DNA of 31,484 nucleotides from positions 1 through 31,484 of the forward strand of contig CAKZVN010000320.1 of the NCBI GenBank assembly GCA_937922105.1. Direction: 5' to 3'. Source of the DNA: an uncultured Litorilinea sp. GTDB taxonomy: Bacteria; Chloroflexota; Anaerolineae; Caldilineales; Caldilineaceae. Of the stretch, positions 2,809 to 6,800 are shown in pieces. The position numbers were made by a program, and so were the translations under genes. Every line of letters starts with the position of its first letter. The first letter of the stretch is position 1. The notes beneath the pieces are model-generated. The model saw nothing but the letters and a program-made list of their open reading frames with translations. It had not been told where the DNA came from and ran no database searches.

Positions 2809-3957
2809 CTAGACGGCGATATCCGGCATGGTTGCCGGCGCCGCCTCCTCAACCAAGAAGCGCAGTCCGATCTCTCCCGTCTTCAACCCCTCAAAGGCCG
2901 GCGCATCGCGACAGAGGAACTTCACCTCGCGTTGGATGGCCGTGCGGATGCCCGGATGGGTCAACTGGCGTTCCATCCAGACGTCGTTGCCCACTTCCTC
3001 CGCTTGGGCGCGCGCGCGGCTGTCCGGGTCCAAGTAACCGTCGGGGGCGCCATAATCCTCCTCAATCGCCTTGCGCAACCAACCACGCGGGTTTTTGATG
3101 CGATCCGGATGCACTTCTTCCAGAAAGTCCAGAAAGTCCAGTTTTTCGCGGATACGGGCGTGGCCAAACTGGTCGACCAGTTGGCGTGCAACGCGTTTAC
3201 CCAATCCCCGTTCTATCAAAGCAACAACAGCGTCGTCCTCGGGGATGGGTGGCGCTTCGTTTTGCGGCGATGCTGCGCGCATTGTTCGGTGGTTGTTGTT
3301 ATGGGTATTGTTGCTTTGTTGTTGTTCGATCGGTAAATTACCAGACCCCCCCGGTAAATTACCAGACCCCCTTCGGTAATTTACCGAACCCCCCTCTTGC
3401 TGTGGGGCGGGGGCTGCTTCCGGCTGTGCCACGCGGGCCGGACGACGAGTCGCCTTGAGGTTATCCAGATTTGTGCGGCAGCGTTCCACCAGTTCGGCAT
3501 GTTTCTGTTGCAGCAGGGGCGGCAGGGTAGCGAGCTGGTCTAGGGTCAATAGCTTGGGGGTGAGGACGACGTCGAATTTATAGCGCATATCCGGCCCTTC
3601 GCCCTCCTCGCGCGCAAAGAGCAGTTCATGTTGCTGCAGAATCTCGATCAGGCCCGGGTAGGTATAGGTTTTGCCGTGCACCACCTTTTGGTAGCCGGTG
3701 AGGACGCGTCGCTCTTTGATGCCCAGGATGGCGGCCAGGAGGTTGATTGAAGGCCAACAGGTACCCGCCTTTTGGTCCTTGTCGGCGTGGCAGAAGCTGC
3801 GTAGCACCTCGTACAGCCCCCAGGCGTCGTTGCCGACCAGGGCGCGCCAGTAGGTGCTTTCGTAATTGGACAGAATTTGGAAGCCTGCCCGGAGAGGATC
3901 GGTGACGACGCCGTTGATGTCAACAGGAATGTCGTCGGGGAAAGTGGTATTCGCCAT
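2809..3957 (-). CDS. Putative replication initiator (N-terminal HTH, low-complexity linker, C-terminal KNPRGWLRKAIEEDY domain)
   Basis: WGLYEVLRSFC...CWPSINLLAAILGI resembles the HTH of phage/plasmid initiators; internal iteron-like repeats; directly upstream of parAB; AGGAG is 9 nt before ATG 3957. Confidence 0.7.
   Translation of the reverse strand: MANTTFPDDIPVDINGVVTDPLRAGFQILSNYESTYWRALVGNDAWGLYEVLRSFCHADKDQKAGTCWPSINLLAAILGIKERRVLTGYQKVVHGKTYTYPGLIEILQQHELLFAREEGEGPDMRYKFDVVLTPKLLTLDQLATLPPLLQQKHAELVERCRTNLDNLKATRRPARVAQPEAAPAPQQEGGSVNYRRGSGNLPGGSGNLPIEQQQSNNTHNNNHRTMRAASPQNEAPPIPEDDAVVALIERGLGKRVARQLVDQFGHARIREKLDFLDFLEEVHPDRIKNPRGWLRKAIEEDYGAPDGYLDPDSRARAQAEEVGNDVWMERQLTHPGIRTAIQREVKFLCRDAPAFEGLKTGEIGLRFLVEEAAPATMPDIAV
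3331..3394. repeat. Three tandem 21-22 bp iteron-like repeats inside rep
   Basis: CGGTAAATTACCAGACCCCCC / CGGTAAATTACCAGACCCCCTT / CGGTAATTTACCGAACCCCCC; each contains the dyad GGTAA-W-TTACC. Confidence 0.85.
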
Positions 3958-3986
3958 GTTGCACATCTCCTGTGGGTCCCAGACGG

Positions 3987-4128
3987 GCCTTGAAGGAGGT
4001 GCAAAGACAGAGGCTTGACATCACCGGTGATCTCGCATATGCTGAAGGTGCCAACCTAAGCCTTGAGATCGCCTTGTTTGGTGATGTCAGTTACTTTTAA
4101 GCCTCTGTTCCTTGCATCTCTTGCAGGC
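3987..4128. other. Long imperfect inverted repeat (rod-like hairpin) upstream of rep
   Basis: Nested pairings: 3994-4004 with 4112-4122, 4007-4016 with 4099-4108, 4016-4025 with 4080-4089, 4026-4034 with 4065-4073. Confidence 0.8.
4015..4043 (+). promoter_or_regulatory. Strong sigma70-type promoter firing away from the rep CDS
   Basis: TTGACA (4015-4020), 17 bp, TATGCT (4038-4043). Confidence 0.75.
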
Positions 4129-4175
4129 GGAACTAGGACGAAGAATAGGCTCCGTTTCGGGGCTTATTCTTTTTT
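4050..4175 (+). ncRNA. Candidate ~125-nt counter-transcribed (antisense) RNA
   Basis: Bounded by the consensus promoter and an intrinsic terminator; no ORF with an RBS; internal hairpin GTTCC-TTGCA-tctct-TGCAG-gc-GGAAC. Ends are approximate. Confidence 0.5.
4141..4175 (+). terminator. Intrinsic terminator
   Basis: 13-bp stem AAGAATAGGCTCC/GGGGCTTATTCTT (two G-U pairs), 5-nt loop, then a T-run. Confidence 0.75.
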
Positions 4176-4253
4176 GATGGATAGAGTGTTTGGATCTGAT
4201 CCGATTTCGTGGACACCGAGTTAAGGGTATACTGCCCGCAAAGGAGGTGTCCG

Positions 4254-4322
4254 ATGAAACGCCAACAGTTTGACCGTCCCGGCGCACGTGCGCCAGGGTC
4301 CGAAAGGACCCCATCCCCGTAA
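4254..4322 (+). CDS. Possible 22-aa small ORF MKRQQFDRPGARAPGSERTPSP
   Basis: AAGGAGGT at 4241-4248, then ATG 4254 to TAA 4322; it overlaps three hairpins, so it may instead be non-coding. Confidence 0.25.
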   Translation: MKRQQFDRPGARAPGSERTPSP

Positions 4323-4362
4323 GGGGATTCAGACCGCCACGACCCTTGTAGACTCTTGACAC

Positions 4363-4396
4363 CGCCCAGGCAGCTCCTAACTGCCTGGGCGTTTTT
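4363..4396 (+). terminator. Intrinsic terminator / REP-like hairpin
   Basis: Perfect 11-bp stem CGCCCAGGCAG/CTGCCTGGGCG, 7-nt loop, followed by TTTTT. Confidence 0.7.
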
Positions 4397-4571
4397 GCGC
4401 GTCTGCCAGAGCCCAATCTCCCAATTCGCTAACCTCACGGGCTGCAGGGCGCTTGCAGGCGGGATGCGCCCTTGCGCGGCGCCCGCGGTGCGCTTGCGGC
4501 GCGGGGTGTGGTAGCATAAGGACCATGAGTCGCCTGTCCTGATGTGCCCGCCGCGCCGGAAGCCGCTGCCC

Positions 4572-6800
4572 ATGTCCCGCGAACCGACCACCGTCGCCAA
4601 ATTGCGCGGCCTGCCCTGGAGCGTCGCCTGCAACGCCACCGCCCAGGTCCACGCGCAGTTGACCTTCTTCGGCGCGCTCTTCATTCTTTTTCTCAACCAG
4701 CTGGGGCTGAGCAAGACCGCCATCGGCTTGGTCCTGGCGCTGGTCCCCTTTTCCTCGGTGTTGGCGCCGCTGGTGGCGCCCTTCACCGCGCGCTACGGCT
4801 ATAAGCGCGTCTTCGTGATCTTCTATGCCGCGCGCAAGGTGGTCACCCTCTTCATCTTGGCAGCGCCGTGGGTGGCGGCGTGGGGCGGCACCACCGCGGT
4901 CTTTTGGTACATTGTGGCGGTGATTGCGTCCTTTGCCGTGGTGCGCACCATCGAAGAGACCGCCTACTTCCCCTGGGTGCAAGAGTTTGTGCCCAACCGC
5001 GTGCGCGGCAAATACACCGCCATGAGCAACATTGCCACCGCCTCCACCGGCTTTCTTGCGGTCTGGGCTGCGGGCCAAGTGCTGGAGCGCAGCAGCGGCT
5101 TGGAGGGCTTCCTGCTGCTCTTTGCCGTGGGCGCGGGCTTCGGCTTTGCCTCGGTGGCGGCGTCGCTCTTCATCCCTGGCGGCGCGGCCCAGCCCGAACT
5201 GCCCACGCGCGGCTGGCGCCAGGTTTTGACCGGCCCCGCGCTGCGCGACGGCAGCTTTCGCCGCTATCTGTTGGGCGTGGCGCTGGTGATCTTGGGCACC
5301 GCGCCGCTGGCGACCTTTCTGCCCCTCTACCTGGAGGAGCGCGCCGGCTTGACCTCGGCCCAGGTGGTGCAGGTGCAGATGGGCAGCCTGTTGGGGATGC
5401 TGGTCTTTTCCTATTTGTGGGGCTGGGCCGCGGACCGCTACGGCTCCAAGCCGGTGATGCAGGCGGGCGGCTGGCTCTTGGTGGGCATGCCGCTGCTCTG
5501 GTGGCTCTTGCCCGGCGGGCAGACGTGGAGCTTAGCCGCCGCGCTGGGCATCGCCTTCCTGCAGGGCAGCGCCACCCTGGGCTGGGGCATCGGGTCGGGT
5601 CGCCTGCTCTTCGTCAGCGTCGTCCCCACCGAACACAAGCTGGACTACATGGCGCTCTACTTCGCCTGGGTGGGGTTGGTCAGCGGGCTGAGCCAATTTG
5701 CCGGCGGCGGCGCGCTGGACGCCGCACGACGTCTGGAGGGCACGCTGTGGGGCGTGGAATTGCACGCCTATGTGCCGCTCTTTGCCGTCTCCGCGCTCTT
5801 GCCCCTGGCTGCCATCGCGCTCTTCGCCCGTGTGCGCGGGGATAGCCCCCTCTCCACGCGCCAAGTCGCCAGCATCTTCCTGCGCGGCAACCCCTTCCTC
5901 GCCATGGGGTCGCTGATTCGCTACTACACCAGCCAGGACGAGGCGCGCACGGTGAGCGCGACCGCCGCGCTGGCTGCGCCGGGCAGCCGCCTCACCGTGG
6001 ATGAGCTGCTGGAAGCCCTGGCAGACCCGCGCTTCAACGTGCGCTTCGAGGCCATCCAGGCCCTGGCGCGGATGCCCGCGGACTCGCGCATCACCGACGC
6101 GCTGGTCAAGACGCTGCACAGCCGCGCGCCTGCGCTCAGCTCCATGGCGGCGTGGGCGCTGGGCCGCGGCGGTCATCACGCCGCCATCCCCGCGCTGCGC
6201 GCCGCGCTGGAAAGCGACTATCGCTCGGTGCAAAGCTACGCCGCGCGCGCACTGGGCACCCTGGGCGATGCCGCCGTGGGCCGCGAGCTGTTGGCCCGCC
6301 TGGAAGCCGCCACCGACGAAGGCTTGAGCTTGGCCTATGCCACCGCGCTGGGGCGCTTGCAAGTCGCCGAGGCGCTGGACCCCATCCTGGCGCGCTTGGC
6401 CGCGGCCGCGGATGAATCGGTGCGCGCCGAGTTGGCCTTGGCCGCGGCGCGACTGGTGGGCGACGAAGCGCCCTACATTCGCCTGGCGCGCAGCAGCGCC
6501 AGCCAGCCGGGCACCAGCTATGCCCAGGCGTTGGCTACGGCCCACAAACAACTGGCGCGGCGGCTGCGCGGCAATGCGCCCCGCTTGGCTCTCTTGACCG
6601 AGTTGGCCGACTGCTTTGCGCGCGAAGAAGTGGACGCGGCCGCGGTGGGCTTGGCCGCGTGGTTGGCGGAGATGCCGCCCGGCCTTTTGGCTGCGCCGGC
6701 AAGCCACGTGGCGCGCGTCGCGGCCGCGCAGCTCCAGCGCCACGCGGCCGCGCGGCCCGAATACCTGCTCCTCGCGCTCCACGCCCTGACGGTGGGCTAG
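4572..6800 (+). CDS. MFS transporter fused to C-terminal HEAT (PBS-lyase-like) repeats
   Basis: About 12 hydrophobic segments with MFS loop motifs (ARYGYKR, AADRYGSKP), then repeats such as LLEALADPRFNVRFEAIQALARM and LRAALESDYRSVQSYAARALGTLG. Confidence 0.85.
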   Translation: MSREPTTVAKLRGLPWSVACNATAQVHAQLTFFGALFILFLNQLGLSKTAIGLVLALVPFSSVLAPLVAPFTARYGYKRVFVIFYAARKVVTLFILAAPWVAAWGGTTAVFWYIVAVIASFAVVRTIEETAYFPWVQEFVPNRVRGKYTAMSNIATASTGFLAVWAAGQVLERSSGLEGFLLLFAVGAGFGFASVAASLFIPGGAAQPELPTRGWRQVLTGPALRDGSFRRYLLGVALVILGTAPLATFLPLYLEERAGLTSAQVVQVQMGSLLGMLVFSYLWGWAADRYGSKPVMQAGGWLLVGMPLLWWLLPGGQTWSLAAALGIAFLQGSATLGWGIGSGRLLFVSVVPTEHKLDYMALYFAWVGLVSGLSQFAGGGALDAARRLEGTLWGVELHAYVPLFAVSALLPLAAIALFARVRGDSPLSTRQVASIFLRGNPFLAMGSLIRYYTSQDEARTVSATAALAAPGSRLTVDELLEALADPRFNVRFEAIQALARMPADSRITDALVKTLHSRAPALSSMAAWALGRGGHHAAIPALRAALESDYRSVQSYAARALGTLGDAAVGRELLARLEAATDEGLSLAYATALGRLQVAEALDPILARLAAAADESVRAELALAAARLVGDEAPYIRLARSSASQPGTSYAQALATAHKQLARRLRGNAPRLALLTELADCFAREEVDAAAVGLAAWLAEMPPGLLAAPASHVARVAAAQLQRHAAARPEYLLLALHALTVG

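Follow-up and report, generated by a model that had tools for sequence, protein, structure and literature searches.

The leader of a putative replication-initiator gene (rep) of an uncultured Litorilinea sp. is likely to carry an antisense-RNA translational attenuator, which would set the level of the initiator on a plasmid-like or integrative element of the Caldilineaceae (Chloroflexota). The window, i.e. the whole stretch of 31,484 nucleotides analysed here (contig CAKZVN010000320.1), holds in this leader the candidate gene of a counter-transcript that we regard as a new RNA family with a known mechanism. From the folding predictions, this antisense RNA most likely refolds the rep message so that ribosomes cannot start.

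The counter-transcript gene is predicted on the + strand. An earlier, sequence-only reading of this DNA had recognised a consensus promoter at 4015-4043; this sigma70-type motif (TTGACA-17-TATGCT) is present and is the sole promoter-like site between 3500 and 5200, where 0.2 were expected from shuffles. The terminator proposed at 4141-4175 was likewise recovered: in its hairpin 4141-4154 pairs with 4158-4171, the T run extends to 4175 and the G-U pairs are functional on the + strand; a simple scanner passed it unseen but a stricter test for a hairpin and a U-run found it. These two signals delimit a predicted non-coding RNA of ~125 nt (4050-4175, the 5' end being set by promoter spacing), and the segment 4050-4176 folds alone with a z-score of -4.45. 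[quoted passage not shown] No relevant Rfam family was retrieved at gathering score for the window and 20 homologous loci, and the matches retained by E-value in the same set were chance matches covering the terminator only. Contigs from an RNA library of a relative span 3876-4086 and 4138-4190; they are unstranded, transcript ends are absent from them and they leave a gap across the rep coding region, to which we attach no weight. As regards the rep strand, the T run of the window terminator is interrupted there by a C. In four other leaders (L012, L023, L093 and L095) A and T runs flank the antisense terminator on either side, and it could halt the rep transcript as well. Among five related hairpins, four have G-U pairs that favour the antisense strand.

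On the opposite strand, rep has its conserved start at ATG 3957-3955 and not at 3966, since L011, a close relative, lacks an in-frame ATG further upstream. Together with the SD sequence AGGAG (3971-3967) this ATG occupies 3955-3972 (-). The anti-SD (4002-3994), the SD region (3971-3961) and the look-alike (4122-4112) claimed on the rep strand all lie at those coordinates, and in our folding the two switching strands cover 3994-4004 (anti-SD) and 4108-4124 (look-alike, within the RNA target). The rod of ~140 nt that had been proposed was delimited at 3990-4128 and was much stabler than chance when both strands were folded (z-scores of -6.5 on the - strand and -6.0 on the + strand). This rod would be the ON fold of the rep leader.

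All switch predictions were obtained by equilibrium folding. In the free window leader, the anti-SD is paired with 4108-4124 (8.6 expected pairs) and not at all with the SD region (0.0); when the RNA target is masked, it shifts to the SD region (9.45 expected pairs), and the predicted SD opening cost goes from 3.3 to 7.6 kcal/mol. With the 5' end set anywhere between 4135 and 4217, the SD is predicted to cost 2.7-4.2 kcal/mol to open in the free leader and 7.5-7.6 kcal/mol under masking; for the ribosome footprint the corresponding values are 6-9 and 13-18 kcal/mol. Masking 4105-4130 alone flips the switch; masking 4062-4090 or the terminator alone has no effect. A leader whose 5' end lies at 4100 or below is predicted to be locked OFF, so that a working system would require rep transcription to start upstream of the look-alike. 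The OFF helix of the window is modest (-15 kcal/mol, not above non-cognate pairs); the cognate duplex between the target and the downstream segment reaches -69 kcal/mol, versus -36 to -40 kcal/mol for non-cognate ones. Two interior runs only, the rod bulges at 4074-4079 and 4091-4099, are free of pairing in the RNA as well as in the ON rod, and six of the 12 variable rod positions among three close relatives fall within them; as modelled, the bulges are likely toeholds for the antisense RNA and specificity determinants. Within the subfamily of the window, the hairpin-2 loop is complementary to the look-alike and hence to the SD region (duplex of -18 to -24 kcal/mol), an energy matched by 15%, 1% and 3% of shuffles in three relatives.

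We infer transcription of both units, their overlap, the role of Rep as an initiator and copy control, and the following course of events combines these with the folding. The rep mRNA would normally begin upstream of 4176 and would fold co-transcriptionally into the long ON rod, in which the look-alike (4108-4124) would hold the anti-SD (3994-4004), so that the SD and the ATG would stay open. The promoter at 4015-4043 would yield the antisense RNA, and the two bulges of the rod have their counterparts in the loop (4074-4079) and the linker (4091-4099) of this RNA. Duplex formation would then remove the upstream arm, the anti-SD would pair with the SD-ATG region and initiation would be blocked; the earlier proposal that RNA binding frees the anti-SD and blocks rep translation is thus borne out in its sign by masked folding, in 25 of the 26 loci considered below. 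As the dose of the RNA would follow the copy number of the element, negative feedback would result, and probably incompatibility.

To place the cassette in a wider context, 33 homologous rep upstream regions (45-97% protein identity) were compared; their leaders are mostly unalignable and a single alignment across subfamilies was unusable. Promoters were called with a rule (TTG at the start, at least five of six positions in the -35 box, a spacing of 16-18 nt and TAnnnT) that was fixed after the first batch had been viewed; six of the seven leaders retrieved later satisfy it, the seventh having a variant -35 box. An antisense promoter stands 25-113 nt before the ATG in 26 of the 28 homologues with an intergenic leader (26 of 33 overall), counts that overstate independence because these 26 loci represent only about 10-14 independent leader types. 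The background was 2.2% among 734 genes of the same genome and 2.0% in shuffles, and the rule was satisfied on the sense strand in a single locus of the 33. Five of the seven promoter-negative loci are leaderless, rep standing directly behind another ORF; none of the five has an antisense promoter, and they are a natural control. These loci (L017, L051, L053, L091 and L097) represent a second layout of the Rep family, with neither leader nor antisense gene, where a different control must therefore apply; in L091 and L097, the ORFs ahead of rep are parA and a second gene.

A strict antisense terminator was found in 16 of the 26 loci (1.4 expected), versus three on the sense strand and none in six control loci, and a looser search gave candidates in nearly all 26, with predicted RNAs of 72-246 nt. 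In nine of 24 loci (3.5 expected), the sense strand has a promoter upstream of the terminator; at the level of sequence, this excess supports an overlap of sense and antisense transcripts within the Rep family. By the same rule no rep promoter was detected in the window or in the intact relative L010, in agreement with the sequence-only reading, which had located none in the window.

The predicted switch was followed across the same loci. Under masking the SD became costlier to open in 25 of 26, the increase being at least 1.5 kcal/mol in 22, and in 17 the native target beat at least 95% of its own shuffles at freeing the SD. A further control, in which the segment from the RNA start to the SD was shuffled, discriminates nothing, since shuffles rich in GC are able to pair with the SD as well. 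The switch is absent in four homologues (L014, L016, L019 and L030), and the SD is costly to open even in the free leader in L093, L021 and L029 among others. The anti-SD/SD helices are built from differing sequences across leader families and are often located in the spacer of the antisense promoter; in one subfamily alignment, seven pairs had changed on both sides, in sequences too few for a formal test. Promoter, terminator and the pairing of upstream, anti-SD and SD strands thus recur despite unrelated leader sequences, and comparison of the loci shows the predicted promoter, terminator and alternative helices to be conserved.

How the RNA would act can be read in other ways. That it is real and acts mainly by transcriptional attenuation in the style of pT181, pIP501 or repABC, or by both routes, appears unlikely. 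Hairpins followed by a U-run appear on the masked rep strand 20-40 nt before the ATG in L019, L088 and L096, and weaker ones in L093, L021 and L099, and the OFF fold of pSA564 is known to act both ways (PMC8129170). By contrast, no such RNA-induced intrinsic terminator before the rep start was found in the window, L010 or L011, where the predicted OFF helix closes on the SD and the ATG. On these models the window subfamily looks translational, and some other subfamilies add a terminator-like hairpin.

We give even less weight to transcriptional interference from a strong convergent promoter, or to RNase III decay triggered by the duplex, with the alternative helices being secondary. The promoter is indeed the best-conserved feature, and convergent-transcription effects are known from pIP501 (PMC5703833); however, these processes leave unexplained both the cognate-specific pairing of upstream and downstream segments and a release of the SD that beats shuffles. 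They could add to refolding.

The rod itself had prompted the caveat that several of its stem pairs are G-U on the + strand and A-C on the - strand, and hence the idea of a + strand rod RNA or a DNA cruciform. The caveat is right for the window copy, whose rod duplex is worth -62 kcal/mol on + and -55 kcal/mol on -, the window family having more G-U pairs and a lower energy on +. A structured + strand RNA, a DNA cruciform or a single-strand origin is nevertheless very improbable. One arm (3990-4031) lies upstream of or within the antisense promoter, so the counter-transcript holds one rod arm only and cannot form the rod; no + promoter was found upstream of 3990 in the scan of 3500-5200, and the + strand rod is not conserved. 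Cross-pairing is greater on the rep strand in 22 of the 26 loci, L010 and L012 have G-U pairs functional on the rep strand only, and origin-like repeats lie inside rep and not in the leader. The stability bias towards the + strand probably comes in part from the antisense RNA's own hairpins.

Least probable of all, the + unit would encode a peptide or be the antitoxin of a type I toxin-antitoxin pair, on the grounds that an ATG opens a frame at 4084 and that the + strand holds a perfect SD-like string (3995-4003), but the frame has no SD, is not conserved (altered in both relatives) and extends beyond the terminator, the string lies upstream of the promoter as the complement of the anti-SD, and no small toxin ORF was found.

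The translational attenuator thus retained would control a gene (2809-3957, - strand) encoding an initiator-like winged-helix protein of 382 aa with a weak HTH_36 match. A DnaA_N domain occurs at the C-terminus of 16 of 52 Rep homologues, and the best structural match of Rep was primosomal DnaB (E 0.02, below significance). The genes after rep are, in order, parA, parB and a MazE-type antitoxin gene. The search returned 77 Rep homologues, one of them named from a Caldilineaceae bacterium, and related rep loci were found in Litorilinea, Anaerolineae and Chloroflexia assemblies; near-full-length rep is patchy, being present in about seven of 150 genomes in the family. Homologues have FtsK, TraG-like and relaxase genes among their neighbours, and also a tRNA and an HTH_17 gene; in L024 (1-4000), 2.4 kb separate a 23S-5S rRNA operon from rep and the antisense cassette, so that the setting is that of a chromosome or chromid. 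These neighbourhoods point to a Rep family carried on plasmid-like as well as integrated mobile elements. Leader DNA gave chance-level matches only in the 150 family genomes, no Rep relatives or leader matches were found in viral contigs and phage genomes, and the sole Rep match among PLSDB plasmids was weak and C-terminal. Distant HTH relatives (L079-L087, 30-40% identity) are other gene types and, by eye, their upstream DNA holds no such cassette.

Three 21-bp repeats (3331-3394), probable origin boxes, lie in the linker-coding middle of rep; 11 loci show the 21-bp motif again, spaced by 21-22 nt, and no leader contains it. Rep may be an initiator with an internal origin. A 15-bp palindrome occurs at window positions 1, 1204 and 2725, around parA-parB and nowhere else in the genome, and is a probable parS. 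Upstream of the leader, the intact relative has a 94-aa gene (L010, 351-635) with no credible Pfam match, which may encode a small DNA-binding repressor.

The window copy itself appears to be damaged. An IS3-family left end (4191-4276, + strand), 100% identical to the end of contig C33, begins ~15 nt beyond the terminator, where relatives have the rep promoter region; a related IS3 end precedes HTH_Tnp_1 and rve ORFs. Homology to L010 ends at 4190, and a contig of the source run extends 30 bases over the 4190/4191 junction, one short of our bridging rule. From this arrangement, the IS3 end probably removed the rep promoter of the window copy, which is probably why the earlier reader missed it. 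A possible outward promoter in the IS end (CGGACA-18-TACCCT, 4253-4224, - strand) fails the promoter rule. Within rep, ~86 codons are deleted in frame near 2975, where short imperfect direct repeats flank the deletion; the loss covers the greater part of a C-terminal region which in homologues resembles DnaA_N. Contigs of two runs from two studies span the deletion junction without difference. The window cassette would thus be intact in sequence and probably orphaned from its own promoter and, with the IS3 end and the rep deletion together, the window copy may be silent. Two runs of different studies, X1 and X2, from a marine and a soil metagenome, hold identical sequence including the rep deletion and a spacer of the CRISPR array on contig C174; this identity possibly reflects cross-sample carry-over.

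Beyond the IS end, a lone CRISPR repeat (4298-4334) differs by one mismatch from the nine-repeat array on contig C174. The 21 nt before it resemble the end of the C174 array leader, a terminator hairpin (4363-4391) follows, and the whole (4277-4391) may be a collapsed or relic array. No contig among those listed bridges 4277-4297, and the join of the IS to the CRISPR repeat may be an assembly artefact. Within 4191-4323, the IS3 end retains a -10 box (4219-4224), a strong SD and the orfA start, from which a frame of 22 codons now runs into the repeat; the IS3 end could drive transcription of the CRISPR repeat.

Taken together, these data predict a complete control cassette (promoter, RNA, toeholds, ON and OFF helices) for an undescribed initiator family in the Caldilineaceae, a group occurring in sludge and sediment samples. 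In the open literature (subscription papers being outside our scope), our searches retrieved no account of how the replication of plasmids or mobile elements is controlled in Chloroflexota. The mechanism itself will not surprise plasmid specialists; the RNA family and the host group are undescribed. L010, being intact, may serve as the replicon of a shuttle vector of tunable copy number. More tentatively, one may envisage a phylum-specific replicon class based on an undescribed DnaB/DnaD-like Rep, whose switch would have re-evolved repeatedly, about half of its members carrying the anti-SD in the promoter spacer, and in which the RNA of the window subfamily could also hit the SD directly, refolding being combined with blocking of the ribosome-binding site (RBS).

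Antisense control of rep leaders has well-described counterparts, and the window system belongs to neither the RepA_N nor the repABC class, since it has no RepA_N or RepC domain, another gene order and no Rfam match. The RepA_N domain was not detected in the window protein or 51 homologues, nor was any Pfam match to RepC in the window protein or homologues. The translated leader peptide coupled to rep that characterises CopA/tap (IncFII) and IncI/B systems was not found here: the only leader ATG abuts its own SD-like string, and frames differ among relatives. In pT181 (RNAI) and pIP501 (RNAIII), an antisense RNA likewise masks a pre-emptor strand so that a downstream hairpin forms (PMC5703833), but these RNAs end transcription and serve another Rep family, and no terminator is predicted in the window leader.

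Closer parallels are found with the repABC ctRNA of Rhizobium etli p42d (PMC3155836; Rfam RF00489), where the free leader is also one large stem-loop with the SD and start open, the ctRNA refolds this leader, ParA/ParB genes are adjacent and the origin lies in rep, as it may here. The two differ in gene order (rep-parA-parB here, not repA-repB-repC) and in the OFF state, which in p42d is a terminator; the Rfam ctRNA match was below gathering score in the window and 20 loci, reaching 15 bits for a cut-off of 50 and covering the terminator only.

The nearest likeness is with pSK41 RNAI and pSK1 and pSA564 RNA1 of staphylococcal RepA_N plasmids, where a counter-transcript also faces a rep leader of ~200 nt and where the three-strand logic is proven for pSK41 and pSA564 (PMC5703833, PMC8129170). 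As in these plasmids, the window has a predicted counter-transcript gene whose RNA would be complementary to the part of the rep leader that precedes the RBS; three strands (upstream, middle and downstream) that, in silico, fold either into a long ON stem or into an OFF form sequestering the RBS, each excluding the other; an RNA that would bind away from the RBS; and repeats in the central, linker-coding region of rep. It differs from them by a longer RNA (~125 nt versus ~83), its occurrence in Chloroflexota with no sequence or Rfam similarity, an anti-SD that adjoins or lies inside the antisense promoter, a rep followed by parA-parB and an OFF fold without a U-tail. The pSK41-type mechanism has not been seen in RepA_N plasmids outside staphylococci (PMC5703833); our predictions would extend it to an unrelated Rep and phylum, a likeness that probably arose by convergence.
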